Positions 6,083-63,286 are shown, counted from the stretch's first letter. The stretch is 64,000 nt of DNA from Yuukianura sp. NJ FZ-2021 (GCA_046563655.1 CM102290.1:13268001-13332000); one strand, 5' to 3'. Translations and numbers: made by a program. The notes: generated by a model from the letters alone, not told the origin.

Positions 6083-6272
6083 AAACTGCGCACAAACTGC
6101 GCTACAGCGCACAAGCACAAACTGCGCTACAGCGCACAAACTGCGCAACTGCGCACAAACTGCGCTACAGCGCACAAACTGCGCTACAGCGCACAAACTG
6201 CGCTACAGCGCACAAACTGCGCTACAGCGCACAAACTGCGCTACAGCGCACAAACTGCGCAACTGCGCACAA
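6083..6272. repeat. 19-bp minisatellite AAACTGCGCTACAGCGCAC, ~9 units including truncated ones
   Basis: Directly visible tandem array. Confidence 0.9.
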
Positions 6273-7732: not shown

Positions 7733-7996
7733 CAAGGTTTGTTGATTTTGATTTTCTTTAACAGGTTGGGTAATACCTCATGTTTTTTGATTTTGCAAAT
7801 AAAAAAAGCGATTTTTTATTTCAGGGCATCGTAGTCATAACATTACAGCCGAATTTTTTTAATTGTGCGTACGAATTGGTAGCAATTTTTCGAATTGGTA
7901 CTAAAATTGATACCAATTTTTTTTTCGTTTTTCTGTCAACAAGCGAGGTGGTACCCAACCTGTTAAAGAAAATCTTTTCGTTGTCAAGGAACCTTG
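7733..7996. mobile_element. P-like CAAGG MITE
   Basis: CAAGGTT..AACCTTG; TSD GGTTTTAC/GGTTTCAC; internal IR TTAACAGGTTGGGTA / TACCCAACCTGTTAA; close relative of 54435-54675. Confidence 0.8.
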
Positions 7997-13271: not shown

Positions 13272-13505
13272 CAAGGTTCCTTGACAACCGAAATACAACA
13301 AACAAATTGTATTTACTACAACAGGTTGTCCAATACCTCAAGGTTTGCAACAATCTTACTTCAAACAAATTTCTGCACCAATCCCGTTTACATTACATGG
13401 AAAAAATTACCATAGAATTGTAGATTTTTTTCAAACAAATTTTCAAATTTGCAGTTATTGGACAACCTGGTGTAGAAAAAGTTTTTTTTTTGTTTACGAA
13501 CCTTG
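13272..13505. mobile_element. P-like CAAGG MITE
   Basis: CAAGGTTCCTTGACAAC .. TTTACGAACCTTG; internal IR CAGGTTGTCCAATA / TATTGGACAACCTG; TSD degenerate; similar to 17356-17668. Confidence 0.7.
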
Positions 13506-26174: not shown

Positions 26175-26352
26175 CAGTAGAACCCCTTCATTACGCAATT
26201 TTTAGTTCCGCTCCTACTGACGTAGAGATACCGTAAAACTTATGTTTTTGGCGGGATTTCGGTTGTAAACAAAACAAAACGCTATGTCCTATATCTCATG
26301 TATGTTAGAATTTGCAGAATCAGAACATGTTGCGCAATGAGAGGTTCGACTG
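26175..26352. mobile_element. CAGTA-family MITE
   Basis: TA|CAGTAGAACC..CATTACGCAA / TTGCGCAATGAGAGGTTCGACTG|TA; body similar to 43159 and 59300. Confidence 0.8.
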
Positions 26353-27788
26353 TATTTATTTGAAATCCGTCCAACGACTGTTGCTAGCACAGCAAATTCA
26401 AAAACATTTTTTCATATCTGAGATGATTTTTATAAATTTGGAGCATTCTCCCTAATAAAGTAAAAAAAAGTCTCAATTGTTGAGCTTGGATTTTATAAGC
26501 ATGGAGTTTTAGTATTTTACTGTAAAAGTAAAAATATGTTCTCAACTTGCACTTTGGAATATTATAGTTAAATATTAGTTTAACATTACTTAATATCAAT
26601 ATAATTAGTACTTATGAGTATAAAATTTAGTTTTTAACATCACTACAAATTCAAATTAATGTTGACAGAGAATTCCATGCTCTTCGGTGTATTATGGAAG
26701 TGAAAATGTACCAGTATAAGCACTTTTAACTGATGTAACGCAAATCACGCAACTGCTAACAACTTGAAACTTAAATTGGATCATTACTACTATGTACAAC
26801 AGGACATTTGATAAATTTGTCTCCTGAAATAGGCAACTTAGCGTGTTAGAATAAATGACCGATAATGTTAAGCTGTGCGGTAGGTTTATTTTTAAAGCTG
26901 GTTCAAAAATTCCATCCAGAAGGTTACCTATGATTTTCGTTTTTGCTTTTTTTTTGCGTTGAAAAATAACGAATTTGAGCAAAAAACAAAAACAGAGTAG
27001 TTTTGAACACCTCAAGTAATTGTAATTGCAGCAGTTTTATATTTCCAAATTCTTGTCTTTGAGTTGTATACTAACATGAAGTTAATATGAATAACACGGT
27101 GTAACCAAAAATACTTCTTTTAGTAAAATAAGAAAAAAAGGGCCATTTTTGCGAAAATTTGAATGTCACATCCGAAATTTTAAACTTGACAAAACTGGGG
27201 TTTGGCTAACTTTTAGCTGCTACATGTATTTGTCAATACAAAATTTATGAATTGTAATCTTTAAGAAAATTTGACAGTTACATTTTAATTTTGAAAATGT
27301 AATTTGAACATATAAAATAGAGAATCACTACTACGTAAGTTATAAAGTTAAGACGAGGGAGTCATTGCACTGAAACACTATCATTTTAGTCTAATTTAGT
27401 CTAAAGTGAGTCTAAAACTAAACTAAATCGTTTAATAAAATAAGATAATACGAATGCTATAGACAATCAACATAACAATGTAGGCTAAAATTTATTGTTT
27501 ACATGGGTGTGTTACTTCTTAGTAGACGACTTCTAATAAATCAATTACGAATTATAGATGCCTTTTTATGGAATTGATTTTTCCTTGAAATTATTTCATC
27601 TCGTGACCTCTGAGCTTGTTTCAAACCAATAAATTATCAAAAAATTCCATTTCGCGTGAAATTGAGAACGCCCCAATACAAACGCTACTGAACTTCCGTT
27701 TTCTTTACAATTTCTAGAATAAATTGGTGTGACATTGGTTTAGTCTCCTACGTATTTTTTAAAGATACAAACCATAATAACGAGATTA

Positions 27789-31997: not shown

Positions 31998-32160
31998 CAA
32001 GGTTGCTGCAGCAACGAAGTAGTTTTCCTTTAACAGGTTAGGCAATAAGTTTTGTTTTCGAAAAATCTTGAGTCTAGCAATTTGTTGCACCTTTTTTTAA
32101 ATTTTTTGAGTTATTGCCTAACCTGTTAAAGTAAAAGTATTTCTTTGTTTATCCACCTTG
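31998..32160. mobile_element. P-like CAAGG MITE, internally deleted
   Basis: CAAGG..CCTTG; TSD GTCTCAAT/GTATCAAT; IR TTAACAGGTTAGGCAATAA. Confidence 0.8.
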
Positions 32161-33934: not shown

Positions 33935-36900
33935 CTACACCATTTGAACAGTCGCCCACGCATTGAACGTCACTTTCTTATTAACTTTTTTCTTCACCTT
34001 GTTTCCCGTGTTGTCTCCCGGTTGCGTCCACATTCCATTTAACTTGGGCATCAAATTCTCCCGGAAGTTTTGTTTGACTCTCTGAGACAAGTTGGCCCAG
34101 ACTCCAGGCGGATACGGCCCTGAGTCTCGCAGTAAAATTTTTGCAGTTCCTTTTCCAGTCAAATGGCTCAAGGTCGATGTTTTTGAAATTCCGCGGCGCA
34201 GTGACTTTGGTGTAATTGGAACTGGGCGATGAGGGTTGAATGGAATAGATGCTGCTGCTGCACTGCCGGGAGTGAATTGCTGTGATTTCCTCGTTTCGGC
34301 AATCTCGGTCCAAGCCGAGAATGGAACGAGGAGTTGTCGTCCATGGGTGCTGGCCCATGTCAAGTACTCTGTTCCTCCATTGACATTGGTCAGGGCATGA
34401 GAAGGCACAAAGTTCAATGACCTTTGGTAGGGGGCAAAGGTCGATGACGTCCGACCCATGACCTGATACAAGTAGGACTCTTTCGGATAACTACTTCTAG
34501 GTGTGCTCACACTCTCTGTTTTCAATGGAACCAAAACAACAGGTTTCCCGCCAACTTTTAGTTTTCCAGGAGTAGAGTTTAGTTGAAGTCTTCGTTGAGG
34601 GCGGAATGGAGCTCGGATGCTTGTGATTTGACTTTCGTCGTCCGAATCTTCTTCGGATTCGGTATCGACTAACCGATTCGGATGTTCCGGAGTACCGTTT
34701 TCAGTTTCAGAGTCGACTCTCATGTCATTTGAATTTATAGCAGGGACTGAAAAGTAGTGACGTTGGAATGAAAGTGTGTTGAAGTTTCGAGGAATCGTTC
34801 CAAGTGATTTAGGAGGCGGGTTTGACGCAAAGTCAATAGATTTTGCTAAATTTTTCGGTTTAGGGGGATCGTGTAGAGCAAAATCTACGACTGGCGGTTG
34901 AGGAATTGTAAAAACTTGGACTTTTGAAGTAGTTTCTGGAAGGACTTCGGTGGGTTGAATAGATGGAAGAGAGAGGTAGCGTTGATTCTCTCTGTTGTTT
35001 AGAGCTGACGACAAAACGGAACAAGTACGAGGCGGGGGCGGGGGTGGGGCCAACCCTGGTCCCGGTGGGACCGTCCCACCTTGACTTCCATTCATTTTGT
35101 GTTTGACTGGTTTCACTTTGAGTCGAACTTCACGGTACTTTTGAAACAGTTCCTCAGCTTCGGTCTTTGATCGAAACGAAGTTATGAGAGCCACCATCTT
35201 GGATAAATGTTTAACCACCCACACTAGAGTAGAAGGATGGAGACTATCGGCATGGCAAAACAGGACGTCCTGGATAGGATAAGATTGGAACGATGAAATG
35301 TTCGGCAGGGATTCCCACGATTGCGGAGATCTTTCTCCGGAGAAAGTCGGGGATGAAAATTCATCCGAATCGGAGCCATTGCCGGATGAAGAGTTGGAGT
35401 CATCCAGAAATGACTGAATATTGGAAGCACTGGAAATGCTTGTGTTGTCATTAGAAGCTACTGATGACATGGACAGGAGTTGCGTGGAAACTCCATTTTC
35501 TTCCTTGACCTTTGACACATCCAGGTCCTTCATGAGCTCAGTCAAATCAAGGTCAGAAGGTTCTTGGATTTTGATTGACCGAAGTGACTCCGAATCGGAT
35601 TCAAATCCTTCATCTCGTGATCGAAATCCAGGCGCAGTAAGTTTGAGTCCACGTTCAGAACAGTCTACAGTGTACCTTCAACCATGAAAAAAAAAAGTTT
35701 TTTGAAACTTTTAAACTTTTTGTTTTGAAAGATGAAGAAAATCATGACTCGCATTTTCCTGGTCCAAATAGTTTTGGTTGAACCTATTATTATTTTTCAA
35801 ATTATGATCCAGCCAAGAGCTCTTCCTACATTCTCAATTCGTGTATGAAAAAAAAAACCTCAATTGTAACAAACATACACAGAGATGGTAAGAAAACATG
35901 GTAATCAGAAAAGTGATCCCAAAAAGATGCGATGAGGGGCTGATGCCTTAATAGCATATTGAAAATCCGTCGGCTGCTCTACTGCCCCGAGCTACAAATT
36001 CTTTTAAGAAAATGAAAAATGAAATTGGATTTTTGAGGGTTCAGAACACTCACATTCTCGGCTTTAAAAAGTTTCAAAATTTTTATAAATTATATGTTGA
36101 CGCAGTGGCCCTGGGTGCTTTAAATTTGTAATTCTTCCTTTTTTTAAATTTTTGAGTACAGTAGAACCTCTCATTGTGCAACATTTGCTCCGTCTTTGCT
36201 GACCCCGAGATAGGAACCGTAAAACTTAAATTTTTGGTGGGATTTAACTTGTAAACAACGATAGCCTACATTAGAACCTGATAGCGATAGCACAATGGTT
36301 AGAGTTCTTCCTAGATTGAAGAGACGTGGGTTCGAGTCCCACGCGGTTCTTTATTTTTTCTGCTCTGCACTGTTGTTCTTTGGTTCTCAAGCCATGTGAA
36401 TCTAACCCTGAACCTTACATGTGTCAGAATTCGGAGCCGTGCAGAAGCCGGGAAAACTCTTGTTCAAACGAACCAATCAGAGCGTGTTGCACAATGAGAG
36501 GTTCCACTGTATCTCAAAGCTTATAAAGCAGAAAGCGAAGCTCTTACTTGATTCCATCGTGGAATTTGAGTTGTTTCTTTCCAGTCTCAGGGAGTTGGTA
36601 CCTCTGCATTAGCGTAGTGACCAGGTTTGCTAAAACTTCAGAACGAATGGCTCCATCCAATTGAACTTTTCCCAGCAGGTACCCCGTAGAGCTCCCCATC
36701 TTTTCAACTGAAATCATAAAAAACAACCGTACTGCCATCAAAATTTTATTTTTGCTTAAGAATTCATCCAACGGAGATGAATTTTTCATTTGTAAAAGTT
36801 GAAGAAGTTACTCCAGGCACATTGTAAAGCCATTCATTAAATTGAATGGTTCTAAGTGCTATGTACACTGAAAAATGGAGGACTGTGCACAGTGTACAAT

Positions 36901-40842: not shown

Positions 40843-43158
40843 TAATCTTATGATTTTTATTCATCAAAAACGCTAAAATATGTTTTTAAGCCGTTTGAGT
40901 CTTAACAATACAAAAAATTTCAGAAAGGAAAGAAAGTTAACTTAATTAGAACCTGAGATCAATTGATTTTGAAGTTTATTTTGAATGAGAGCAAAGCTGA
41001 TCTCTCGCTGATTTGTTACAAATCAAAAGTCAATGCCTCTCATGTACCGATACTCCCCGCTAGGGCGAAATTTGTTAATTTAGTTCATGTGTTAGCCTAA
41101 ATTACTATGTATGGTGAAAGATGCATCAGAACCCATTGTTTTTTAAAGTGTTCGCGCGCAATTAAAAAAATAATGAACTGAAACCTCCAAGGTTTGTATG
41201 ACTGTCAGATCAGGATGAAGATTCGGTGCAAAATTATTCAAACCGCAAGGCATCTTTTTTCTTTTTTGGCGCAAGGAGTTAAATTAGAGTGAAAAAAGAA
41301 AGAAAAACGTGCCTCTTTTGTTTACTGCACAAATTGGCGCTCTGATTCATCTTCTTTTATGTGAGCAGCAGCAGATGACCAAATAGAGTCTCAAATATTT
41401 AGAGTTGTGCGCCAGAGGCGCTAAAAACTAAAACTCCAATCACACACTACAGTTTTTAGAAAAGTTTTTAACAAAAAGCACCTAAGGAGAATAAAATGTT
41501 GCAAATGCAATGTAATTTTTGACGTCTTGAGAGCATTGACGTGACGTCCAGAGAGTCCGTTGTTCTCATAAGTCAGATTTTAAATTTGACGTGAAATTGG
41601 GACATTGGCTGACGGTTGAGGATGAAGCATTGTCACAACATTTACTTTTGGATCAACGTTGGTGAAAAGTGCGCCAAGAGCTTAACTTTCATCATCGTCT
41701 TTTCTTAAACGTCAAAGGCATTGATGGGAGATGAACGCTTTGCTTTGACTCAAGCGATGATTATGGATCTGTCAAAATCAGCGTCATCTTTTGCACACTA
41801 CGTGTCGATCAGAAGCGTCTGACAGCTTAGACCTCCCCAACATTTCGACACATTTAATTTCAGGTCGAGAGTCTTTTGAGTTCTAATTGCGCTCAACAAT
41901 TAAGTTTCATCTTTTTTTGTTTGAAGAAGGTCTTTGGGTTTCCTTCTGCTGCCAGTCAAAAGAAGCAACGTTGTTTCGAGTTTCTAAAAATTTTGTAACA
42001 TTTCAAAACTTTTTTTTGAAAATAATTACACCCACTTTCCAAAATGCAAATGCAAAAGTTATCAGGTCCGATGAGAGTGAAAATTTTTTACAATTAATTT
42101 TGAAAGTTTTAGATTACATCACGTGATTAGGTTTGATCCAATTTTTTTTTTCAGAGCTTCACAACTACAATTCAAAATGGAACTTCTAAGATTATGTCTT
42201 TCAAATTGTAGAAAGTAAAGGAAATTGAACTCTGATTGGATTTTTTTTAGTTCTGTCCTAAAGGTGTGACCCATTATTGGAAATCCATTTTGAAATTCTA
42301 AGAGAAAGTTTTGTACTATGAAGTTGGTCATGTCCACGTTCCAATGCTCAAAACTTTGCACGTCTTGTTACCATGAGAACGGCATGGAGGGGCCCTTTGA
42401 CTTACTTTTGACCGTGGATCGTTGTTGCCTTGGTGCTATCTGACTACGTGACCACTGGCCGGACCCACCCAGACAGTAAGTCAATTTTTGTGCTGCGTTA
42501 GAGTTCAAGTTTGCCTCAGCCGAGAGTAATTGAAGACATGGATGAGGGTTGAAAGCATAATTTAAACTTGAATTGCAAAGGATTCCATTCAGAAAACTTT
42601 AAATCTCCCTCACTCTTGGCTCTAATGGAGGAGAACGCTGTGCCAAAAGAAACTTAAAAAATAAAGTGGTCATGCAACTTTTGGTGGACTGTAATACTGT
42701 AATTGTTGTTTGGTGTGTCTTCCAAGGCACTTTTGAGAGATGTTTAGTGTTCATATGAATATGTGTTATTGGACTAGTGGGACACAATAGAGCCCAAAAT
42801 CCACACACACACACGTTTACATGAACTTTCATTCGACAGACAGAATTTGTATCCTCGAAGAAATCTTTTAGGTTTTAAAAGCATCAGAGGCTAAGCTCCT
42901 CAGATCAAAAGTTGTGCTTGAAAGCTTTTTCCAGTAAAAGCAATACAAGACTAACCTTCAAAATGTGTAACCTTGCCTTCCCAAAATAATATTTTGGTAA
43001 CAACCTTGTATGGAAGGAATGTTTCTAATTTTACTTTGAAATTGGGCACGAACCTTGAAATTTTTGTCTTTTCGTGAAATCCTTTTTCCACTCTGCATGG
43101 GTACTTTAAATTGAAAGCTCCAGTCTTGTAGTACGCAGAAAACACAAATTGAGAAATA

Positions 43159-43368
43159 CAGTAGAACCTCTCATTGTGCAACTTTGAGCTCCGCCTCTCC
43201 TGCCGGTGAGATACCGTAAACCTTAAATTTTAAAGTGATTTAGCTTGTAAACAAAACAAAACGCTGGTCGAATATCTCAGATGTATTAGAATTCGAAGCC
43301 GTACAGCGCCCGCGAAAACTCTTTTTCAAACCAAACAATCAGATGTTGCGCAATGAGAGGTTTTACTG
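43159..43368. mobile_element. CAGTA-family MITE
   Basis: TA|CAGTAGAACCTCTCATTGTGCAAC .. GTTGCGCAATGAGAGGTTTTACTG|TA. Confidence 0.85.
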
Positions 43369-45182
43369 TAGATTCCACAATATACTTCATCTTTAACAAA
43401 AATTTTTGAGAAAAAAATTGACATATTAAAATTATGAATTAAATCTGAAGCGAGGAGTAAATGAACCAGAAATAATCGGACATCAAGGCTTTTTTTCGTA
43501 TTTAAAATTTGAAAAAGTTTTTAGGTAAGAGGGATTTGGTTCATTTGCTATTTTTTGCACGTATACTCTGCAGTATAAATTGAGAAGCATTTCCAAGTCC
43601 CCCAGAGGTGTGGAGAGATCTGAATTAAAAGAGAAATTGGATTGAAGGAGGTGCCTAATGCTACGTTAATCGATGACTAGGATCCCATTGACAGAGCCAT
43701 GCGGGAATCCAGGAACGAACAATTCATGTTCCCCTTGGCACAAACTTCAACTGAAAGTAACAAAGTACTTTTGCCAATTGTCATTTCCATGCTTTTTGTT
43801 CATTTAGCACCCCAGAGCTACAGAAGATTTGGAATTGGACTTCAAAATAGAAAAATAACAATGAGAACTGGCTCAAGCCTTGGAGATGGGACTGACGACG
43901 ATGCTCTGAAATCAAGTGCAACAAGAACTATATGCTCCTGTTTCAACCAAGTTTAGCAGTTAATTAGTCACGACGTTTTGGCTTCCGAAGTACGAAAAGC
44001 CTTCGGGACTTCTGCAGCATATTTTTTCGGCATTTTACGCTAGTTACAAATTGCAACTTGCAGTTTTGCAAATTTTCTGCAAATTCTGCCCCACAAAGAG
44101 ATTTGTAGACGATGACACATCAAGGAAATCCAAACGGTCGCCTATTTCCAAATTTAGTTCGAATCCTGTCTGTCCTTGTACATTTTTGGTTGACGAATTT
44201 GATAAAATTTTCATTTTTTTTTAAATTTAATTTTCATTGAATACAAAAAATTTTTTAACTCACTCCTGCTCAAAGTTGCTTTACTAAAATGGAGTCTTGC
44301 GCCACTGCATCCGTCGTCGTCGACTTTGATTTGGTTCCGATTGGTCTTGACACGATTGAATTTCGTCATCAACCCCCCATATTTGTAGCAATTCGTCACA
44401 GTTTCAGTAGCAATTAATTGAAACCTTGAGTATGTAAGATTAATCTGTACGAGACAAAAATTACTAATAATGTGCACCAACAGTTTTAAAAAGTAAAACA
44501 TTTTGTTGCTGTTGAGCAGTCAAAACTTTTTATTTTTGCTGCAGAGCATAGTCAAAACCTTGTTTTTTTTCTGTTGAGCGGTCAAAAGTTTTTGATGTTC
44601 AAAATTATTTGAATTCCATGTCAAAATAATAAATAGCCATGCAACGTTACTCATTTTTTGCTTAGTTGTAACAAACATTTTGTTGTACATTGACCATAAC
44701 AAAGTCCCATTCACAACATGTAGCTAAACAAATTTGACAAGTGTGACATCCTCCGTAATTTATTAGTCTTCATTTCCGTATGACATCAGACTCTTATTAG
44801 CCAAAATTCCTTAGATTATGATTAAATCTTAATTGTAAATCGTATTAAAACGTCAATCGTTGGGCATTGGAAGTTGCAATGCCCAACTACGTGTACAAAA
44901 GTGACCAATGAAAGGAAACTTGAAGTGAGAGTTGGTCAATTACTAAATGATTGAACCTTAGGATTACACTGTTAGATTGTATTTCGCTAACAACTGATCA
45001 CCCCTCTAATCAATTTGGGTATCAACTGTCTGTCACCAGCAAATGATCTATGCCTGTTAATTACTAAAAGCAAAGCGACAGGGCGTCAGTGCAAACATTC
45101 AGTCTACTGTCACCATCGCCGCGCAGCTTTTAACATTTTATCAGTCGTTTTCAACACTGCCAACCTTATTTTTGATTTTTTA

Positions 45183-45479: not shown

Positions 45480-45789
45480 TAAGGTTCGTAAACAAGAAAA
45501 TAGTTTTTTCTTTAACAGGTTAGGCAATAAGTCGGTTTTTTTTGTATTGTTTTCCTCCCAAAATTTCAAAAAATGAAAAACATCACGGCAGCTCTCGTTT
45601 TCTTGGTGATTTTTAGCTTTGATGCATATAGTTTTATATAGATTGCTGCAAATTTTTAACTCAAATAAACTGATCAGCATGTTCAGAGTAAAATCAGAGT
45701 AAAAAAATGTTTGCAGCGACATTTTTGGAAAATGAGACTTATTGCCTAACCTGTTAAAGAAAAACTATTTTGTTGTAAAAGAAACTTTG
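45480..45789. mobile_element. P-like CAAGG MITE, reverse orientation, degenerate ends
   Basis: TAAGGTTCGTAAACAAG .. AAACTTTG; sub-terminal IR TTTTTCTTTAACAGGTTAGGCAATAAGTC / GACTTATTGCCTAACCTGTTAAAGAAAAA. Confidence 0.7.
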
Positions 45790-47717: not shown

Positions 47718-47850
47718 TTTTTTAAGAAGCAAATGCTACTTTATGCATCGAGGTTGTCTGTCTGTCTGCATGTCTGCCTGTTTGTATTTCTTTCTGTCTG
47801 TAATTTTTTCTGTCTGTCTCCATGTCTGCGTGTATGTCTGTCTGTCTGTC

Positions 47851-47885
<35 letters not shown>

Positions 47886-48030
47886 CTGTATATGTGTGTG
47901 TTTGTCTGTTTGGCCCTAAAACAATCACTTTTGAACTGTCTCCTTTTGTATATTTTAATATACGGTGACCCCGTCGCCTATAGCTTTCCACAGTGTAGTA
48001 GGTCAAAGGTCAACGGTTCATTCGCTACTT
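47718..48030 (+). mobile_element. DINE-1/HINE-like element with expanded (GTCT)n microsatellite (47755-47910)
   Basis: T-run, then AAGAAGC-AAAT-GCTACTT hairpin and a long GTCT/GTCC array; GCTACTT recurs near 48024. 3' boundary approximate. Confidence 0.55.
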
Positions 48031-50199
48031 ATGTACAATCCTTTTTACAACCGTGTTTCTTCAGTATATTCAGAATTAGTAAGAATTCAGAAGCCTTGTT
48101 TGTGTAAATGTACAGACAGATCAAGTTTCGTATGAAAATAAATGATGATGATTTGTTGATGACAAACGTTTTGTTGAATTTGGGTTAGGCTGAGTGTCCT
48201 ATAATTAGACATTGGTTTGGAAGACACTGTGGGAACAAAGAAGGTTATTTCAAGATGGAGTAACCTACAAACACAAGAGGCTTCCAAGCCCAACGTCCAA
48301 GAAGTCTCCCATGTCCAAAGTGTCAATGACACTTTGTCATCTTCACAACATCAATCAAAGGCCTAAACAAGGAGGGCCTTAAGTGTCCACTCCTGTGTCC
48401 TCTAATTCCTTCCGTGGACTTTCTCTGGCTCAGCGGCGCATGAACACAAGATCAGTTCTAAAAAACAACACTCAGAGCCAAATCCCATTTTGTTTTTCAA
48501 ACAAAGTGGAAGGGAATGCTGGGGTTTGTGGAGCCTGTTCATTAGCTGTACTTAGCGAGCACATTCATTCCTGGCAGAAAACAAAGTCATTCTCAATCTC
48601 TGAATGAAGATTCGTATTTGAACATGTCTGTAAATCTGAGTTTAGAAATTAAGGTTAATTAAGTTAGAGTTAAAAGTCTATTGAAATGCTACTTCTGTTA
48701 TATGAGTAGTACAACAATGAAGAATGAGGTGCAGAGTTGTTAAAGCTGGGATTCCATTTTGACACTCCCTGGGACTCGCATGAATTTGAATTGGCGTCAA
48801 AATTTTAAAAACATTTCACGACCATCTTCAAATTCATCGAACTTCACCTTCAACCGAAGATCAAACTTGAGAGTTAAAACTAAAAATAGAATTCAATTCA
48901 AAAGAATAAAGTAGGAGTGGAGTACGAGTCCTTTTGAATTTTAATTGAACACAATTATCATCCTGAGCGACAAAAGATGAAATTTATTTGTTCACATAAT
49001 GTACATTTGTGTTCAATTATTTTAAGTTCTTGGGTGCTACTTAATTACACCCTTTCAAAACAAACGCCAAAGTGAAAGTCAACTTTTACTCATACTGTAC
49101 ATTCCAGTTTTGAAGTTTACACCAAAGTGTTTTTCTGCATATAGTGTCTAAAATTTTTGTTGAACGGATTGGAAACTAATGAGATAATTTAGAATAAAAA
49201 TTTTCTAAAAAGTTGAAGTTTAGTTAGATTTTCAAAATTTGAGGAACAATTGCATTGTAAAAATGGATTTTGAGGAGACTAATGTTGGTTTCACGTTGTT
49301 TTGCCTGAGGATAGAGGTAACCTTACATGATTTTTCATTAATAAATTTTAGCCACCTACTGTACAACAAATCAGCAGTGCATAGCCACCTAGCGGCAGTT
49401 GAAGAAAACTTGAATCCAAGAAGTCGCCAACTACTGTCGCTTTTGAACTTTGTTTTGCATATTTGGCAGAAGATGAAGTCTAAGGAATGTCATCTTCATC
49501 AAGGATTTGAAGATTAGGCAGAGGTGAGTTCGGTAGTTGATGTTTCAAATTAAACAGGTTCATTCAAAAGGTGTAAAGTTGTGTTAATACCAAAAAGTAT
49601 ACCGAACAATCTCCGAAGTTACAAAATCCACAAATCCCCTACTTCATCTTTATACAAATTCTCAAAAACTTTCTCAAAAGAATTTTGTTTTTTTTCTTGT
49701 TAAAATGCAAACCTGTTGCAAGAAACAAAACGACTTTTTAGTTGGTCAACTTAGGAATTAATCATAACTACATAGGAAAAGATACAAAACCTTTAGCTTG
49801 AAGGGTTAGGGAAAACAAGGAAGAGAGAACAATAGTTTAAATTTTTTCATAATAAAATCATAACTTTAAATCATTTTCTCAATTTTTATGTCAAGTTGAC
49901 TGAAACAATTTAACAATTTGTTTTTGAAAATGTGTGCTTTTCACAATTTCTCATCTGCGAAGTACAATAGCTTTTATTGGGATTGCAAAGCTCTTTTTAA
50001 TTCGAAAATGAGATTTTTGTTAATCAGGATTAACAGAAAAATTGTTAATGCTTCGTTAGTTGTTGAATTTTCACGTACAAGCTTAAGTTCAATATTTGCG
50101 CAATCTCTGGAATTTTGAACAGGATTTTAAAAAAGGGAAAGTTAGGCTATGCTTTCTCCTTGAACCGATTGAGGCCAAGAGTTGAATTGCTAAGGAATA

Positions 50200-50675
50200 C
50201 AGTAAAACCTCTTATTGTGGAACACGTTTCATCCTAACCTAACCTTTTCTTCTCCGTATCCGTGACAACGGTGTACCGTAAAACTCATATTTTGTGTGAT
50301 AAACCAAGCCTAAACTTGTGTAAAATTGAATTGCTGGGTTGAGCGCCAGTACACTTAATAAGAAACTTTACAGTAACAACGTAACTTTACGGTAACAATA
50401 AAGGTTAACTACGGAAACGTCGTTGCGCTATGAGGGGTTTTACTGTATTTGGACCATTGAGAGTAACGCTGCCGGTTCAGAGAGAGTTGAGGTGCAGATT
50501 TAGAAACTTTACGGTAACAACCGAAGAATTTCTCTTGTTGCCGTATGAGAGGTTTTACTGTATTTGGAACATTGGAACCAGCTTTCTCGCTTCAGAGCGA
50601 GTTGCGATGCAGAGTTAGAAACTTTACGGTAAGAACCGAAGAATTTCTGTTGTTGCGATATGAGGGATTTTACTG
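50200..50675. mobile_element. CAGTA-family MITE (50200-50445) followed by two 115-bp tandem units, each ending in the right TIR
   Basis: TIR-like GAG(G/A)GG(T/A)TTTTACTG|TA ends at 50445, 50560 and 50675. Confidence 0.7.
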
Positions 50676-51402
50676 TATTCGGAACATTAATCTGCCGGTT
50701 CAGAGGGAGGTGAAGACTATGTATTTTTTGGAATGGTTGGAATTCATGTTGGTGGGTTGAAGAGGGAGTGCTGGGCAGGTGGAAAGTAGAATAGCTCGGA
50801 GGAATTTGATCTTGTGATTGTTGAACAGGTAAGGAGGCCTCCCCATGCCAACGGAACCCTCTGCCTCCCCATCATCAGTACTTCTTCTTCCCTCGTCCCT
50901 GACACTTCAACTTCCGCAACCACTCAAACTTCAAGTCTCACCAAAAACCGTGCCCCAGTTTACGTCAGCGACTCAACTACGGTGTCCAGGAAGTGGCTGG
51001 AGTGACTGGAGCAGCGGAGTGCCCACCGTCCAGGTCAAGGTTCCAGGTATGTCGTGTCACAAGTTCAAAGTTTAGAATTTAAAGAGAACGAGGGAGTGGT
51101 GGAGAGAGGCTGTTCAATGGCTGACCAAGGGGATGAAATTGCAACCCTCCTTCATCCCCCACCCCTCCTCTCCTTGTACTCTCCCTGGACTTCCTCCTTC
51201 GGTTTGGCCTCACTTGACGTCGTTCGGAGTTCACACAAAACAGTCAAATTCAAATCTCTGTGGCCTCTTACCTTAACTACTTTGCAAGGATTTGGTAAAA
51301 ATCAGAGATCAAGTGATGCCCACAATACCAACTTTTCATGATCCTGTGAAATTATTTAATACAAAAATTGCCGGTAACGTCAATGATTTGGGACGGGATG
51401 AG

Positions 51403-52181: not shown

Positions 52182-54311
52182 ATGCCACTCGTGAGAAAAT
52201 CCAGAGCAGGTCGGACCAAAGGTCACCACAGTGAAGAAGACGAGTCAACGCCAATATGTCGCTGTCGCGTGTTGTACCTTGGTTCAGCAGTGCCACACAT
52301 TACAAAAGATGGACTTCAAGGGATCCAGGAGCCCTTGAAAGAACTTTATCCCGACACGGGACTGTCTTCACTCAAGGGCATTGACTCTTGGTTAAGTGTT
52401 TGGTCCAATGGACTCTTACTGGAAAACGTGGACGAAAAAAACACAAAGATCACCAGGTTTTTCCCAATAGAGTCTCTACACTACTGTGCCGCTGTTCGGA
52501 ACGTTCTTGTTCCAGCCAATCGGGATGGCCCGTCATCATCGTCTAATGAAAAAGTCCAAAAGTTTCTACCTCTCGACTCACCATTTGCTCAACTCCCAAA
52601 TTTAAATCACCCGCCTCTTTTTGCCTGCATTTTGCGGCGCACAACTGGAATCAAAGTTCTAGAATGTCATGCGTTTATTTGCAAAAGAGAAATGGCAGCC
52701 AACGCACTCGTGCGATGTTGTTTCCATGCCTATGCCGACTCGACTTATGCAAAGCAACTGGAAAATGGCGGTACCCTAGCAACCAACGGTGGAGTATCTA
52801 ATGGAAATGGGTATACAAATGGAAATGGAGCAATGTTTAAAGATTCAGCGCCAATTCAGCGCTCTGTGACTCCGTTGGACTCTATTGAGAAAGTGACAGG
52901 ATGGCAAGCACTGAGTCAAAATGGAGACTCTGATATCATTGTCCTTGGGAATTCAACTGATGAAGACTTCAGAGATGGGCCAGTGACGAGTTCAACTCCA
53001 AGCAGAGACAAATTTGAATTTCGAGCCGAATTTCCAGATGAAGATGAAATTTACGAAGGGAACGAAAATCATAAGATTTGGAGCGGCAACAATTCGACTT
53101 TGGGACACAACGGAACTTCGGAATTGGTGTACTTAGAAGCTGATGGGACCCTTAAGTCTATCAAATCACATAACTCTAGACTTTCAAGGCCACGTCAGTT
53201 TGTGTCCCCTCCACCTCCACCTCCTCCTCCACCTCCACAGTTCTCATTGCTCAAATCGGCTGTAGAAGAGGACGCTTCGTCCAAGAAGAAAATGAAAAAG
53301 AAAATGAAAAAAGACAAGGTCAAAGGTCAGCCGCAATATTTGGTTCGTCCAGCATCTATGATGAACCTAAGTAGTTCCCAAGGGCTTCAGCCTATCCTTA
53401 CGACACGACCGGGTAGTGTCATCAATGGGCCAGTGTCACATCGTCCAGGCAGTGCAATGTCAACTATGACACGCCCTCGACCTGTCCACTCTCAACAGTT
53501 GATACCAGTGCCACACCATGTCCATGGAAACGGGTTCTATCCACCACAACCCATCTATGGTCACATTCCTCCACAGTTTGCCATATCTCACCCTCAACTG
53601 GTCAATGCCTCCAAGTCCAAAAAGAAACAGAAGCAACTGCTAACTGCCGTGCCCATCCTTGCTCCAACTCCAATGCCCATGATGGCCCACCATCATCATC
53701 CAGGGCTCCACCACCCCATGAACGCAACCCCCTCTCCCATGTACCACCATCACCATCAGAAGCTCATTGATGAGCACCATGAGCACCAGCGGGGACTTAA
53801 GGGCCCACCGGGTGACATGATCCTCATGCCCCAAACACCAGCTCAGTATGCCACGATTGAGCGAGGCTACCATTACCACTCGAGACCCCTCAACGGTGAG
53901 TCGGCTACTCTCATGTCAAATAAGAGCAAAGGGAAAAGTAAAGGGTCCCCCCAAGAGGATAGGGAAGGGTCCCCCTTCAACTCGGGCATTTACCGTAAAG
54001 GGCACTTGAACGAGCGGGCATTCTCGTACTCGATTCGGCAGGAACACCGATCAAGGTCATTTGGTTCCCTGGCTAATCTGCAATTTGGGAATGAGACAGG
54101 TAGACCTTCGGGGTCATCGCCCTCGTCAGCCGAAGGGATCAAAAAGGAGCGGGAAATTATTCAAATGGTGAGAGATTTGGACTTATCTGGAGATGAAATT
54201 GAGAGATCACATGTTCCCCCGGAGATGTACCCGCAACACCGTAAACCCACACCAGCAGTCAATGGACACCGGAAACAAAATGGCCATGGGCCGAGGATAA
54301 CTCACCGATAG
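52182..54311 (+). CDS. PTB/PID-domain, Pro/His-rich adaptor protein C, ~709 aa, single coding exon
   Basis: Long ORF after acceptor tttcag (52150); first ATG at 52182. Clear PTB pattern CRVLYLGSAVP..GLQGIQEPLKELY..SWLSVWSNGLLL..RFFPIESLHYCAAV..LFACILRRTTGIKVLECHAFICKREMAANALVRCCFHAY. Poly-Pro, Lys-rich and His-rich tracts follow. Confidence 0.88.
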   Translation: MPLVRKSRAGRTKGHHSEEDESTPICRCRVLYLGSAVPHITKDGLQGIQEPLKELYPDTGLSSLKGIDSWLSVWSNGLLLENVDEKNTKITRFFPIESLHYCAAVRNVLVPANRDGPSSSSNEKVQKFLPLDSPFAQLPNLNHPPLFACILRRTTGIKVLECHAFICKREMAANALVRCCFHAYADSTYAKQLENGGTLATNGGVSNGNGYTNGNGAMFKDSAPIQRSVTPLDSIEKVTGWQALSQNGDSDIIVLGNSTDEDFRDGPVTSSTPSRDKFEFRAEFPDEDEIYEGNENHKIWSGNNSTLGHNGTSELVYLEADGTLKSIKSHNSRLSRPRQFVSPPPPPPPPPPQFSLLKSAVEEDASSKKKMKKKMKKDKVKGQPQYLVRPASMMNLSSSQGLQPILTTRPGSVINGPVSHRPGSAMSTMTRPRPVHSQQLIPVPHHVHGNGFYPPQPIYGHIPPQFAISHPQLVNASKSKKKQKQLLTAVPILAPTPMPMMAHHHHPGLHHPMNATPSPMYHHHHQKLIDEHHEHQRGLKGPPGDMILMPQTPAQYATIERGYHYHSRPLNGESATLMSNKSKGKSKGSPQEDREGSPFNSGIYRKGHLNERAFSYSIRQEHRSRSFGSLANLQFGNETGRPSGSSPSSAEGIKKEREIIQMVRDLDLSGDEIERSHVPPEMYPQHRKPTPAVNGHRKQNGHGPRITHR

Positions 54312-54388: not shown

Positions 54389-54751
54389 CCGTAAATCTCC
54401 AAATAGTACCCCCGTTCCAAATATACATCCCCCTCAAGGTTTGTTGACTTTGATTTTCTTTAACAGGTTGAGTAATACCTCATTTTATCCGATTTTGCAA
54501 AAAAAAAAGAGTGTCTTTCATTTCAGGGTATCGTAGTCATACAGCGGAAGTTTTAAAATTTTACATACGAATTGGTACCAAAATTGGTATCAATTTTTGT
54601 TTTTTTTTTCGTTAACAAGCGAGGTAGTACTCAACCTGTTAAAGAAAATTAACTTTTCGTTGTCAAGGAACCTTGTCCATTCTTCGTACTCCGCCTCCGT
54701 ATTAGAGACGAAAAGGTTAGTACCCCGCTAGTACTATTTGGAAATTTACGG
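54389..54751. mobile_element. CCGTA-type MITE with nested P-like MITE (54435-54675)
   Basis: CCGTAAATCTCCAAATAGTAC .. GTACTATTTGGAAATTTACGG|TA enclosing CAAGGTT..AACCTTG. Confidence 0.75.
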
Positions 54752-56154: not shown

Positions 56155-57483
56155 TATGGGTCGGAATCCGGAACGGGTTTCTTAAAATCCGGATTTCGGA
56201 TTTTGACGGATTTCAATCCTGAAATCCGGATTTAAATCCGGATTTCAATTTCTGTGTTAACTCCCATAAGAAATTCAAAATTGATTTAAGCTGTCGGAAT
56301 TGCAGGTTGGAAACACTCGTAGCTAAAACCTTGATGATAAATTCGGCGTGTTTATTTTTTGAATCAAATTACTAGTGTTGAAAAAAAAATGAAACATTGG
56401 CACAACATTAGCACAACATTAGCACAACATTGGCACAACATTGGCACAACATTAGCACAACATTAGCACAACATTGGCACAACATTACAACATTGGTACA
56501 ACATTGGCACAACATTAGCACAACATTGGCACAACATTAGCACAACATTGGCACAACATTGGCACAACATTGGCACAACATTACAACATTGGCACAACAT
56601 TGGCACAACATTAGCACAACATTACAACATTGGCACAACATTGGCACAACATTGGCACAACATTGGCACAACATTACAACATTGGCACAACATTGTCACA
56701 ACATTGGCACAACATTGGCACAACATTACAACATTGGCACAACATTGGCACAACATTAGCACAACATTGGCACAACATTAGCACAACATTGGCACAACAT
56801 TGGCACAACATTGGCACAACATTACAACATTAGCACAACATTATCACAACATTGGCACAACATTACAACATTGGCACAACATTGGCACAACATTGGCACA
56901 ACATTGGCACAACATTACAACATTGGCACAACATTGGCACAACATTGGCACAACATTAGCACAACATTACAACATTGGCACAACATTGGCACAACATTAG
57001 CACAACATTACAACATTGGCACAACATTGTCACAACATTGGCACAACATTAGCACAACATTAGCACAACATTGGCACAACATTGGCACAACATTGGTACA
57101 ACATTAGCACAACATTGGCACAACATTAGCACAACATTGGCACAACATTGGCACAACATTAGCACAACATTGGCACAACATTAGCACAACATTGGCACAA
57201 CATTAGCACAACATTAGCACAACATTGGCACAACATTGGCACAACATTAGCACAACATTAGGACAACATTGGCACAACAATACAAAATACGGTATTTTAC
57301 GAATTCTGAAATTGAGTAAATCTGAGGTTGGCTATTTTTTTTGATACCGCACATGCCCTCGAATAGCTCTTGAAATCCGTAGAAATCCGGATTTCAGTAT
57401 TTAAAAATCCGGATTTTGAATAATCCGAATCCGTCAAAAATCCGGATTTGAACCCGGAGCCAAAATCCGGATTCCGACCCCTA
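56155..57483. mobile_element. hAT-like minisatellite-bearing element (copy 2)
   Basis: Arms near-identical to 19883-20722; left TIR carries one substitution (TATGGG); TSD poorly conserved. Confidence 0.88.
56393..57278. repeat. 11-bp minisatellite, roughly 80 units, with ten 8-bp variant units
   Basis: Directly visible; ACATTACA variants are interspersed. Confidence 0.95.
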
Positions 57484-58495: not shown

Positions 58496-59299
58496 TAGCT
58501 GCATTGTTATTTGCTAACAGCCAAGGAAAGTGGTATACCTTGCTAACAAATTTTTTGAATTCATTGGCCTACGTTGCTTACAGCATGTGCAAGAAAATTT
58601 GTGTTTTCGGACTGGGATTGGCGAACATAAATTTTTTGTAATGTAATCAAACTTATACTTTATCCGGCATGTCTTGTGAATCAATCCTTTGTGCGGCCTG
58701 AGTGCATCAAAATTCTGGTCATGTTCTGCAAGTCAATTTCTAAGGAAATCGGTTGGTTGGGTTTACACAGAGAGTTAAAGTTGTTGTGTAGGAATTAAAA
58801 GGAGTGGTTGGACATAAAGAGCGGAGGTCGTTGTTCCATTAGTTGTAAACACTCAATACGATGAAATTCATCTGAATGTACTACATACTCCGTATAACTG
58901 TTTAATTGTTCTCTTCATTTCTTCTTTTTTGACAGGAGGAAGGCAATAATCCAGCAAAACCAAAACTACCTTTCACTCAAGCAGTTTTTACAAAAATTTC
59001 AAAAGTTGGCAGAATTTAGTCATTGGAAAACTACTGGCGACTTTGAGAGAGAGGTTGGAGATAGACGACTTTTGAAGGCTGCTCAATTTTAATTGTCGTC
59101 CAAGTACAAGTTTACAGTTAACACTTCCAATTGTTGTCAGAGAGCGGTGATCCCTTTATTCGTTTAATATTATAAATACTACACTTAAATGTCATGTTTG
59201 AACATTAGGAAATAAGTTTAACTTAATTTTTCATATATTCACTCAATTTTATTTAAACTTTGTAATTTTAAATTATTAACTTAGATTTATTCCAAATTA

Positions 59300-59509
59300 C
59301 AGTAGAACCTAACGTTGTGCAACATTAAGCTCCGCCTTTTTTCCTAACAGCGAGATACCGTAAAACTCAAATTTTTTGAAGGATTTACTTATAAACGAAA
59401 CGGTGGTCCAATATCTCAGATGTGGTAAAATTCGGAGCTTTACGGTAGCCGCGAAACGTTTACTCGAACTAACCAATCAGAAGATGTTGCACAATGAGAG
59501 GTTGTACTG
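59300..59509. mobile_element. CAGTA-family MITE
   Basis: TA|CAGTAGAACCT..TTGTGCAACAT / ATGTTGCACAATGAGAGGTTGTACTG|TA. Confidence 0.8.
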
Positions 59510-60410
59510 TAACTCAAAATTTTTTTTATTACGTTCAACTTTTAATGCAGAAACTTCAAATGAAAATGAAACGAGTACTGCAAAAATGTTTGAAATTCAA
59601 TGTCAAAATTCTGAATTATCGGCAAAATGTTAACGTGTATTTCAATTTGCAATTGGGAGGAACAGAAATTATTAGGCTTCTTTTTATACTTCACTGTTGA
59701 ATTAGTTGTAGCCGGAGACAGACTGATTGTTAACTAATTTTTAAGTTAATTAATAGTTAACTTATTTAGAAAAAATATATGCCCGAGCTTGAAAAGAAAT
59801 TAACCTCCCTGGAATTTCAAGATTTTAACATTTTCGAAATCCAAATTGTTGAAAATTTGTAGAGTGATTATAGGAATAGGTCTGAGTTGTGTCGTGTATA
59901 TTGATTGTTTTCGTGACAAATTGATGCATGTTGTTCCGTTTGTTGTTTAACTAGTTTTATAATTACTTTTCCATTTTTAGTATTTGATTCCCTAACAAAT
60001 TAGTTTCTGAGTGTTTATTTTGCAGAGGTTTATGTATGGACTCCTTAGTTTAAATTACTAAGAAAAAAACGTTGTTTTAGTTATTATTTATTTAAAATTG
60101 ATGTTAATTTATACCTGTACTTAATATTTTTACCGGAGGACACCAGGAATTTAAGTTGAAGTGAAGGAAAGTGTTTATGTGCCATTCAATTCCATTAACT
60201 GCCTAGAAAGAATCCATGCAAGAACAAAATGCAATTCCTCCGTCCAATCAAACTAAATTTTTGTATACAAAAATTTTTAAATTTTTGTGTTTCTTAATAC
60301 AAAAAAAAGATCAATCCGTCCGTTGCGTGTTGACAATCCAATCCAGTTTTGCCTAAGTATTAAATTGCAAACTGTTACAACAAAGTCCAGTACTATGACA
60401 GGGTCAATAC

Positions 60411-61024: not shown

Positions 61025-61866
61025 TCACTGCAGCCCTCTGCAGTAGTCAAAGACGTCGTCGTAAGGCCCTTCAACACAGTAAAACCCAACCAATTTGTCT
61101 TCGTAATCCTCAACATTTTGGCAAATCCAATCCGCTCTCTCGTCGCAAACGAGATGTCTGCTGCCATATTCATATCCCACGCGTACAGTAGATACAGTCG
61201 TGTCCAAAAGTACTTTAAAAACACTTTCAGAAAGATGTGTCAAATTCGTATTTTCACCAATACGCACATGCGCTGCTGGATTCAGCCCTTCAAAAGTTCC
61301 CACAGAAAGGCCACTGTCAGTCAGTCGATTATAGTCCAGGTCCAAGTACGTAACATTTGGCAGGAAAGCAAATGGCATGAGACCAATTTCCTGTATCCCA
61401 GTTTTGAAAAAATAAATTGTTTGGAGGGACTGTAGTCCGTCAAGTGCCAAATTTTCAATTCTTGGTAAATCTCCATTTGAAAAATAAATGCCTTCAAGGT
61501 TACTAAATTTTCTGACAAAAAGGAATGGATCTTCATCAAAGCTGGCGGTTACTTCCAGTTGTGTTGTGTACTCATAAGTGCTCGGAAATGCATTTGGGTC
61601 AATGATTAGTTCGTTATTGCGGAAATACAACTCAATTTCCTTGAACTGAAGCGTAGTCATTACAGCTTCGGGGATTGTAATTTGGTGCTGATCTGTAGAA
61701 GTAGCCAGGCGCAGACCGTCGAACACTGGATAGCTTTCAACTGCCTCGCTAACTTGATCAAACATGAGCTTGAAGTCAGTTGTATTATATACGGAACATT
61801 CTAGTCTTCTGTAATCCGTTTTGGTACATGAGCACTCTATTGGTAACAGATCATTTGCTGGACACG
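61025..61866 (-). CDS. Cys-capped LRR module 2 (terminal exon of the LRR gene, or a tandem paralogue lacking its ATG)
   Basis: CPANDLLPIECSC N-cap, LRRs (LQSLQTIYF, LPNVTYLDLDYNRLT), C-cap LVCDERADWIC..GFYC..DVFDYC; collinear with module 1; no in-frame ATG upstream of the N-cap; acceptor ATTTCAG at 61867. Confidence 0.75.
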
Positions 61867-61933
61867 CTGAAATTAAAATCAATTGACTTCCATGAATAAT
61901 TACACAAAAACTAAAGATACAGATACGCCTTGT

Positions 61934-62017
61934 CAAGGTTTCGTTTCGTATCGTATCTCGTTAGAAGCGATATGATACGATCTGAACCCTGACGGATACA
62001 ATACGAAACGAAGCGTG
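61934..62017. mobile_element. Short foldback/MITE between the LRR modules
   Basis: CAAGGTTTCGTTTCGTATCGTATC pairs with GATACAATACGAAACGAAGCGTG; no clear TSD. Confidence 0.55.
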
Positions 62018-62048: not shown

Positions 62049-63286
62049 TTAACCTGTTTTGCAATAGTCAAATACGTCCTTGAACTCGTCACCAAGGCAA
62101 TGAAATCCTTTCAGTTTCTGTTGATATTCCCCATCTAAGCAAATCCAATCCGACCTGGCATCGCAAACAAGTTGGTTGTCTTCATGATCTTCCTGTTCTC
62201 GCCCAACCCGGACAGTAGACCGAGTCGAGTCCAGCAGAACTTTGAAAACGTTTTCTGGCAAGTAAGTCAAATTTCTGTTTCCCTCCAGATTGACCTCTGC
62301 ATATGGACTGATCCCTTCAAAGCATCCAGGGGACAGCAACTCTGATGAAATTTGATTTGATGCCAAATTAAGTAATGTGAGAGTTGGCTGATAGGCAAAT
62401 GGACTTAGCCCAATTTCCTTGACATCCGTGGAATCAAATTCAATCGTCTCCAGATATCGCAGACCTTTGAATGCATTATCCACAATTGTGGAAATTCCAT
62501 GTGAAAAAAATGACAGATATTTCAAATTTGTAAAACTTCTGATGAAGGGATAAACATTGTTGGATCGACCATGTTGAATAACGATAGTCGTTGTGTACTG
62601 GTGTGTGCTTGGAAATGCATCACTATTGATACTGAGGTGTTGAGTACTGCTGAGAATGAACTGAATTGTTCCAAATTTGAGTCCAGTCATCACATTTGCT
62701 GGAATTGTGACTTCGTAGGCGGAGGGGCTGGAGCTTATCGTTAATTCCTCAAATATTGGGTTTGTTCCTGAAGCTTCAGATATTTGATCAAACATTTTCT
62801 TGTAGTCCGTCCCTGTGGAAACTGTGCAATTGACAGTTCGCTCAAACTCGGCATTCTGTTCGCATATGCACTCCACCGGAAACGATTCTGAAGGAGGACA
62901 TTCTCCACCCAAGGTTTCTATAGCAACAAAATAGCATTAAGAGGTTAAGCAATAAGTCCCGCTTTCAGAAAATCTCTCCCCAAACTTTTTTTTCACCCAA
63001 GTTTCACCCAGACTTGTTTTGTGCAAAAATGTAAATGTTTGCACCAAACTTAACGTTCAAAATGAATGAAAAAAATTCGGTTTCCAAAAATCGCCCAGGA
63101 AACTAGACTTGCCGTGATTGTCTTTTCATTTTTGCAATTTTGGGGGAATAAAAAATAAAAAGCGACTTATTGCCTAACTTGTTAAAGAAAAAACTATTTT
63201 CTCGTTAACGAACCTTGTTGTCCACCAGCTGAAACTTTTAGCACAGGAGCCAATAATACCAATAGGAACAATTGTAGCCGTTGCAT
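62049..63286 (-). CDS. Secreted leucine-rich-repeat protein, module 1; exons 63286-63214 and 62917-62049 (313 aa), or spliced at 62054 to module 2 (592 aa)
   Basis: ATG at 63286 gives signal peptide MQRLQLFLLVLLAPVLKVSA; in-frame splice CAAG|gttcgt..ctatag|AAACC; CPPSESFPVECIC N-cap, LRRs, C-cap LVCDARSDWIC..GFHC..DVFDYC. Confidence 0.82.
62910..63217. mobile_element. P-like CAAGG MITE inserted in the LRR coding region, coinciding with intron 1
   Basis: CAAGGTTT..AACCTTG ends; body collinear with 3352-3664; flanking duplication TTCTCCACC/TTGTCCACC. Confidence 0.88.

Follow-up and report, generated by a model that had tools for sequence, protein, structure and literature searches.

A gene for a leucine-rich repeat (LRR) protein in Yuukianura sp. 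NJ FZ-2021, here called d1, is interrupted by a miniature inverted-repeat transposable element (MITE) that may have become a spliceosomal intron. The stretch of DNA analysed, referred to below as the window, comprises 64,000 nt (GCA_046563655.1 CM102290.1:13268001-13332000). All coordinates are those of the whole window, and d1 and its MITE are read on the minus strand. The MITE was inserted into a formerly continuous coding exon, between the parts for the leader and for the first cysteine of the protein. Its ends carry donor-like and acceptor-like motifs, the use of which would remove most of the element and keep the frame. We put the probability that the insertion is a new, spliced intron at roughly 0.55. 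If the junction is real, d1 would be a clean textbook case of a transposon becoming an intron; if it is not, the locus would be an ordinary gene disruption. The features of the locus are, from 5' to 3' on the coding strand:

63286-63284, minus strand: start codon ATG of d1.
63214-63286, minus strand: coding part of exon 1, 24 codons that include the ATG (MQRLQLFLLVLLAPVLKVSAGGQQ) plus 1 nt, signal-peptide-like.
63218-63226, minus strand: left copy of the target site duplication (TSD), GGTGGACAA, equal to the right copy at 8 of 9 positions.
62910-63217, minus strand: MITE of 308 nt, CAAGG..CCTTG, with subterminal inverted repeats of about 55 nt.
62918-63213, minus strand: putative intron of 296 nt, phase 1, entirely within the MITE, with GT at 63213-63212 and AG at 62919-62918.
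63208-63213, minus strand: donor-like hexamer GTTCGT, preceded by exonic CAAG.
62936-62942, minus strand: branch-point-like TCTTAAT, the A of which is 19 nt upstream of the AG.
62918-62935, minus strand: pyrimidine-rich tract and acceptor AG (..GCTATTTTGTTGCTATAG).
62910-62917, minus strand: last 8 nt of the MITE (AAACCTTG), predicted to stay in the mRNA.
62901-62909, minus strand: right copy of the TSD, GGTGGAGAA.
62900-62898, minus strand: first Cys codon of d1.
62049-62917, minus strand: exon 2, encoding the capped LRR domain, which ends in ..DYCKTG and is followed by TAA TAA (stops at 62051-62046).

An earlier, sequence-only reading of the window had proposed most of this arrangement. The 308-nt element, its placement after the signal peptide and ahead of the first Cys, and its coordinates are borne out to the base, and the claimed collinearity with an intergenic copy at 3352 holds as an end-to-end alignment on the same strand with 73% identity. 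The proposed flanking duplication is likewise present, with a length of 9 bp. Agreement at eight or more of nine positions would arise by chance with a probability of about 1e-4. Because a length of 8 gives only 3 matches out of 8, the TSD at the LRR copy is truly one base longer than is usual for the family.

The former continuity of the exon can be read from the locus itself. When the MITE and one copy of the TSD are deleted in silico, the resulting empty site reads ...GCTGGTGGACAA|TGTCCT... in a single open frame, in agreement with the uninterrupted ancestral frame that the sequence-only reading had postulated. The leader exon abuts the TSD exactly. That reading had also suggested a search for an intron-free site in paralogous LRR genes. 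Such a site is present in the tandem paralogue d2 (61025-61936, minus strand), a 303-codon frame with a leader-like N-terminus that is 43% identical to d1. In d2, a hydrophobic leader-like stretch and the domain lie in one frame (...LILISACPAND..), uninterrupted at the homologous site. The same holds for homologues from metagenomes: leader and domain form one open reading frame (ORF) in six of eight loci, and the remaining two are partial matches only. Four of the six uninterrupted loci are on contigs of 3-6 kb with long non-coding flanks, which we take to be genomic DNA. Since d2 and six of the eight homologue loci are uninterrupted at this site, any intron at this site in d1 must be new and coincident with the MITE. 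At the DNA level, an alignment of the 5' region of d2 with that of d1 in its empty-site form was not meaningful, so homology of the two leaders is unsupported at that level.

On the coding strand, the MITE starts with CAAG|GTTCGT, so that an intron would begin at 63213, and it ends with CTCTTAATGCTATTTTGTTGCTATAG|AAACCTTG, where the acceptor string is TTTTGTTGCTATAG|AAACCTTG. Both strings are present exactly as the sequence-only reading had given them. In-silico splicing from 63213 to 62918 leaves 4 + 8 nt of the element and the 9 nt of the TSD, 21 nt in total, which read AGGQQETLGGECP and keep the frame. The spliced frame is open for 38 codons upstream of the junction and for more than 100 codons downstream of it, as expected from the earlier statement that the downstream ORF is undamaged. 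The attribution of the intact frame to the ninth base of the TSD is arithmetically correct, since 8 bp would leave 20 nt and not 21. The seven added residues precede the first Cys and do not belong to the folded domain. Without splicing, the sequence continues past G 63214 as GTTCGTTAACG... and meets TAG after seven codons. From 62917 onwards (AAACCTTGGGTGGAGAATGTCCT...), the d1 frame is open up to the TAA TAA at 62051-62046. The orientation of the element is also pertinent. In the opposite orientation, the donor would read GTTCCT and the far end would have no AG, and therefore only one orientation of the MITE could be spliced, which is the one found in d1.

The following history would account for these data. 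A non-autonomous DNA transposon, with a habit of making 8-bp TSDs and with hAT-like ends, would have entered a secreted LRR gene with a single coding exon, at the position directly preceding the codon for the first Cys. Its orientation would be the one in which the mRNA strand has AAG|GTTCGT at the 5' terminus of the element and (T-rich)AG|AAACCTTG at the 3' terminus. The spliceosome would then take out 296 of the 308 nt. The 12 remaining nucleotides of the element and the 9-bp TSD would add seven residues (QETLGGE-type) between the region of signal peptide cleavage and the folded domain, where changes in length may be tolerated. The allele would have survived only because the residue amounts to 21 nt instead of 20, owing to the 9-bp TSD or to a later slip of one nucleotide in a G run. 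Subsequent changes at the 3' end could have improved the branch point and the pyrimidine tract.

The quality of the encoded domain counts in favour of this history. As judged by eye, the predicted leader of d1 (MQRLQLFLLVLLAPVLKVSAGGQQ) looks like a signal peptide: it is basic at its start, hydrophobic in its core and has small residues at V-S-A. Exon 2 exceeds the Pfam cut-offs, with 29.3 bits for LRR_8 (against 27) and 30.4 bits for LRR_5 (against 27.7), and its AlphaFold2 model, built from a 12-sequence alignment, has a mean predicted local distance difference test score (pLDDT) of 90.6. The nearest solved folds are those of the Toll N-terminal domain and of the Nogo receptor. The Cys columns are invariant in the 12-sequence alignment, and d1 retains all 14 invariant columns of the family. 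In a language-model atlas, d1 adjoins arthropod LRR clusters labelled 'Oplophorus-luciferin 2-monooxygenase non-catalytic subunit-like'. By its Pfam LRR matches, its leader and its Cys-rich caps, the predicted product of d1 is a secreted capped LRR protein.

Relatives of d1 are distant. Protein searches by word index with exon 2 yielded no match at E <= 0.001 in either the near or the longer length class. Among the 150 matches listed by an exhaustive profile search, there were only distant relatives with at most 37% identity, and neither an orthologue nor a transcript-derived d1 product. The single-domain relatives in this search are 300-340 residues long and 27-34% identical. Full-length homologues possess a hydrophobic N-terminal leader of about 17-26 residues, the end of which is 1-3 residues ahead of the first Cys. 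A metagenome scan with a single protein returned 141 pattern-matching stretches, none of which encodes a relative. The scan with the alignment returned the eight homologue loci discussed above, in which no nucleotide similarity to the window and no similarity to the MITE was found.

The MITE in d1 (the LRR copy) belongs to a family with eight complete copies in the window, at 3352, 7733, 13272, 17356, 31998, 45480, 54435 and 62910. Nine occurrences of an 11-nt seed taken from the subterminal repeat were counted in the window, where 1.0 is expected. The other members are:

3352-3664, plus strand: intergenic sister MITE, collinear with the LRR copy on the same strand, 73% identity, with a perfect 8-bp TSD.
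45480-45789, plus strand: sister MITE in the opposite orientation, 72% identity to the LRR copy, TSD not clear.
7733-7996, 13272-13505, 17356-17668, 31998-32160 and 54435-54675: shorter or diverged relatives.
58381: truncated MITE end.

The sequence-only reading ascribed 8-bp TSDs to the sister copies. This applies to four of the other seven complete copies (with 8/8, 7/8, 7/8 and 7/8 matches); for the other three, no duplication is recognisable. A 9-bp TSD is found in none of the four copies with a recognisable duplication, and an 8-bp TSD combined with the same splice sites would leave 20 nt and cause a frameshift. According to the account of hAT hallmarks in PMC3014272, these elements have 8-bp TSDs and terminal YARNG. 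Like hAT-superfamily MITEs, the family has 8-bp TSDs in four of seven other copies and a terminal CAAGG that matches YARNG. CAAGG is present at both ends of seven of the eight complete copies, and the copy at 45480 has TAAGG and CAAAG instead. TSD length and termini thus fit the hAT hallmarks, which makes hAT a candidate superfamily. The designation 'P-like' in the sequence-only reading is unsupported, as only the 8-bp TSD is shared and this feature is not specific: P-superfamily elements also make 8-bp TSDs. A Pfam scan of 8 of the 27 ORFs of at least 110 amino acids in the window and of the two LRR ORFs identified no transposase; no search was aimed at an autonomous element.

The splice-like strings are a property of the family. 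The terminal repeats read CAAGGT(T/G)NGT at one end and, on the same strand, ...AG N AAC(C/T)TTG at the other. In all eight copies the two repeats differ at position 9, where one of them has G and the other has C. Because of this difference every copy, on one strand, starts with AAG|GT..G.. and has an AG 8 nt before its end. In keeping with this, the AG is located 8 nt from one end in 8/8 complete copies, and GTNNGT is present at the opposite end in 7/8. The asymmetry at position 9 may reflect selection for spliceability or simple descent. Only one of the eight complete copies, the LRR copy, is clearly in coding sequence, and no other is flanked by long open frames both upstream and downstream. 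The copy at 13272 was considered as an intron of a coding exon and rejected, because the frame there is lysine-rich, has no Pfam match and is regarded as non-coding. The copy at 17356-17668 lies within an ordinary intron (16447-17710) of a PID-like gene and ends 42 nt before its acceptor. It is antisense, so that its GT and AG are not presented to the PID-like transcript.

The LRR copy differs from its relatives at its 3' end. The conserved ..CCTGTTAAAG(A/G)AAA.. is lost there and replaced by ..CCTCTTAATG-----C.., and the same motif is intact at the donor end. The AG that six of the seven other copies have 20-23 nt upstream of the terminal AG is absent, so that the nearest upstream AG is 44 nt away. 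YNYTRAY is the branch-point consensus, and the LRR copy contains the only match to it among the eight copies (TCTTAAT, the product of private changes). Pyrimidines account for a fraction of 0.65 of the 20 nt that precede the AG, the highest value of the eight. These changes are suggestive of tuning towards a better acceptor. For a 12-nt segment named beforehand, we estimate a probability of about 0.03 for three clustered 3' events among seven in the 118 terminal columns.

In its sequence-only description, the insertion was called recent, a claim that is weakened by the divergence of the element. A three-way alignment of 324 columns shows 38 private substitutions in the LRR copy, compared with 21 and 31 in its sisters. 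The conserved termini of the LRR copy contain seven substitutions and a 4-nt gap in 118 columns. The 288 codons of exon 2 are intact even though the LRR copy is at least as diverged as its sisters and its TSD has one mismatch. We simulated the fate of a neutral 864-nt frame with a simple model (0.1 indels per substitution). The probability that such a frame acquires neither a stop nor an indel is 0.53-0.29 at 0.5-1% divergence, 0.08 at 2%, 0.02 at 3% and 0.0005 at 6%. If a third of the divergence of the element arose after its insertion, a neutral frame of this length would rarely remain intact, which would point to selection on the gene with the MITE in place.

The most serious alternative is that the MITE simply disrupted d1, in that it inactivated the gene or is the mark of a null allele carried by the individual that was sequenced. 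In this case the terminal repeats would have produced the splice-like strings as a by-product, and the frame would be open for no other reason than the short time since the insertion. We consider this possible and give it about one third of our credence. Several observations favour it, weigh against a spliced intron, or do both. The GT and AG strings follow the family consensus and are not special to the LRR copy, and the splice pair was picked by a reader who was looking for frame-preserving sites. The donor departs from the usual consensus at +3/+4 (U, C) and appears weak beside the GTAAGT of the only intron placed in the window, the reference intron of the PID-like gene:

16447-17710, plus strand: reference intron, GTAAGT...TTTTCAG.

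The ends of the MITE are predicted to pair as RNA into a long stem (minimum free energy -86.8 kcal/mol, z -2.9) that contains both splice sites and would bury them. The clustering of changes at the 3' end loses significance when it is taken into account that the segment was chosen post hoc. The argument from age fails if the private changes predate the insertion, which they may, as only three full-length copies are available for comparison, and an intact frame is unremarkable at the lowest divergences that were simulated. In addition, intact frames in this cluster do not prove function. The paralogue d2, which begins about 110 nt past the stop of d1, has an intact frame and nevertheless looks defective: at the position expected for its ATG there is a TTG (61936-61934), with no in-frame ATG upstream. 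This suggests a decaying tandem cluster. Either the cluster has recently disabled genes with frames that are still open, or d2 is expressed in another way.

Plain disruption, on the other hand, requires several coincidences. The MITE would have to be in sense orientation by chance (one in two), the residue would have to be divisible by three by virtue of an atypical TSD with a length seen in none of the four other recognisable TSDs, and the changes at the 3' end would all have to point towards a better acceptor. The short time since insertion that disruption presupposes is also at odds with an LRR copy that looks as old as its sisters and with a TSD that already carries a mismatch. In view of these points we favour the spliced intron.

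A second alternative is that d1 is expressed, and not through the proposed junction. Another upstream exon, a second AG, partial or regulated retention of the MITE, or a joint d1-d2 transcript could be involved. A second AG (62904-62903) is indeed present 15 nt downstream of the proposed acceptor and is likewise in frame, which also counts against the specific junction favoured here. Any acceptor would in fact have to be within about 35 nt of the proposed one, because 62936 is where the frame of exon 2 begins if it is read from stop to stop. There is, moreover, a phase-compatible pair between the end of d1 and d2, with the donor ACAG|GTTAAT at 62054/62053 and the acceptor TTTCAG|CG at 61867/61866, by which d1 and d2 could be joined into a two-domain protein. 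Against these possibilities, the second AG is not preceded by a pyrimidine tract, and no further exon with an ATG and a leader was seen in the 714 nt upstream of the ATG, where no dedicated search was made. The leader exon also abuts the TSD exactly, as expected of the original 5' part of the exon. Altogether, expression by such another route appears quite unlikely.

Finally, introns are common at the boundaries between signal peptides and domains of secreted proteins, and an old intron at this boundary might have been colonised or replaced by the MITE; this is very improbable and all but excluded, because there is no intron sequence beyond the MITE, the flanks are the TSD and form one frame when joined, and d2 and six of eight homologue loci are uninterrupted there.

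Other features of the window lie outside the LRR locus. A single-exon gene for a PID/PTB-domain protein of about 709 codons occupies 52182-54311 on the plus strand. Over its first 260 residues, the product is 85% identical to a protein of the springtail Allacma fusca, and it is 95% identical to a protein without a name; with a metagenome protein it shares 87.5% identity along its entire length. By this gene, the source of the window is most likely a springtail that is related to Allacma and distinct from it. Near 25350 there is a second candidate intron, which did not serve as a reference. A repeat finder detected two arrays with an 11-nt period, at 19996-20900 and 56279-57200, with 58 and 54 register-shifted copies. 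The second of these is open in one frame, which encodes a repetitive HNIGTTLAQHW-type peptide. Both arrays are probably minisatellites. Further tandem repeats are a 19-nt repeat with eight copies and a (TGTC)n-rich array with an 8-nt period, at 6096-6304 and 47739-47932, respectively. A second family of inverted repeats, whose ends resemble TACAGTAGAACCTCTCATTGTGCAAC and its reverse complement, is present in at least six places and is likely to be another MITE family:

16570-16801, 26215-26365, 36154-36522, 43154-43381, 50195-50688 and 59295-59522: members of the second inverted-repeat family.

The origin of new spliceosomal introns in animals is still poorly documented. If the proposed intron is spliced, d1 would offer a datable intron gain at a single locus, with an empty site that can be reconstructed to the base and with splice signals traceable to the ends of the element. 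An oddity of one base in length would then explain why the LRR allele survived when the usual insertion would not have, and the LRR copy may in addition display the later tuning of a branch point and a pyrimidine tract.

A more far-reaching interpretation is that the MITE family acts as a working generator of introns in a springtail lineage, and that the asymmetry at position 9 exists to create the G at donor +5 and the AG of the acceptor. Were this the case, introns made by the family should be present in many genes, either in untranslated regions or at coding sites with compensating lengths, and the family would constitute the first Introner-type system in a terrestrial hexapod. We regard this as improbable. 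The putative intron in d1 does have transposon hallmarks (terminal inverted repeats and a TSD) at its ends, and at the level of motifs the element supplies both splice sites, with the GT at element bases 5-6 and the AG in 8/8 copies. Neutrality to the frame, in contrast, is a property of the LRR copy (21 nt) and not of the family, as the usual 8-bp TSD would leave 20 nt and shift the frame, which also speaks against the proposed intron. The label 'Introner' given to the element in the sequence-only reading is therefore unproven. The LRR copy is probably a single-locus conversion of a transposon into an intron, a one-off survivor and not an Introner.

The published distribution of Introners provides some context. 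As reported by Gozashti et al. 2022 (PMC9860276), they were detected in 175 of 3,325 genomes surveyed and in only two animal groups. The supplement of the survey (PMC9860276) has Introner entries for copepod and Oikopleura genomes and zeros for Folsomia candida and Orchesella cincta. Provided that the columns of the supplement are counts of Introners, a reading made without their headers, the zeros would mean that these two genomes have none. Among the springtail papers listed in literature searches, none reports intron gain from a transposon, as far as titles and the first lines of abstracts indicate.

Among the systems described, family 4 of Aureococcus sp. resembles the LRR copy with respect to what is left behind. 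According to the description in PMC9860276, both splice sites of this Introner are internal, and 4 nt of the element and the 8 nt of the TSD, 12 nt in total, are added, corresponding to four residues. In both cases a DNA-transposon-like element with a TSD has both sites internal and adds residues to the protein, here 12 + 9 = 21 nt and seven residues. The Aureococcus family differs in that it consists of many near-identical introns in an alga, with splicing shown, whereas the present case is one locus in a hexapod-like animal, predicted from sequence. Micromonas pusilla and Aureococcus also have MITE-type Introners (Huff et al. 2016, as cited in PMC11282704). In these a short non-autonomous element with terminal inverted repeats and a TSD serves as the intron, as it would in the LRR copy. 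In the Micromonas Introner, as outlined in PMC9860276 and PMC11282704, the element provides one splice site, the second arises within the 3-nt TSD, and no bases are added. In contrast, both sites would be internal in the LRR copy, and 21 nt would remain. In the tunicate Fritillaria borealis, introns derived from MITEs are mostly non-GT/AG and require an altered spliceosome (Henriet et al. 2019, as cited in PMC11282704). The similarity would be that MITE insertions have turned into introns in an animal and that paired element ends join the ends of the intron. The difference is that the intron of the LRR copy would be an ordinary GT-AG intron.

Further parallels are found in individual mutant alleles. 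A maize Ds element is said to have been described as a 'de novo intron' by Giroux et al. in 1994, and the Drosophila 412 element in vermilion is reported to have been treated by Fridell et al. in 1990; in both, a transposon is reportedly spliced out of an exon. As in the history proposed for d1, a one-off insertion into an exon would have been rescued by splice sites in or near the ends of the element. Ds is itself a hAT element, and thus belongs to the superfamily whose hallmarks the MITE fits. The Ds and 412 insertions are reportedly laboratory or recent mutant alleles, for which splicing was shown and was often imprecise. The insertion in d1, in contrast, would be older, natural and possibly fixed.

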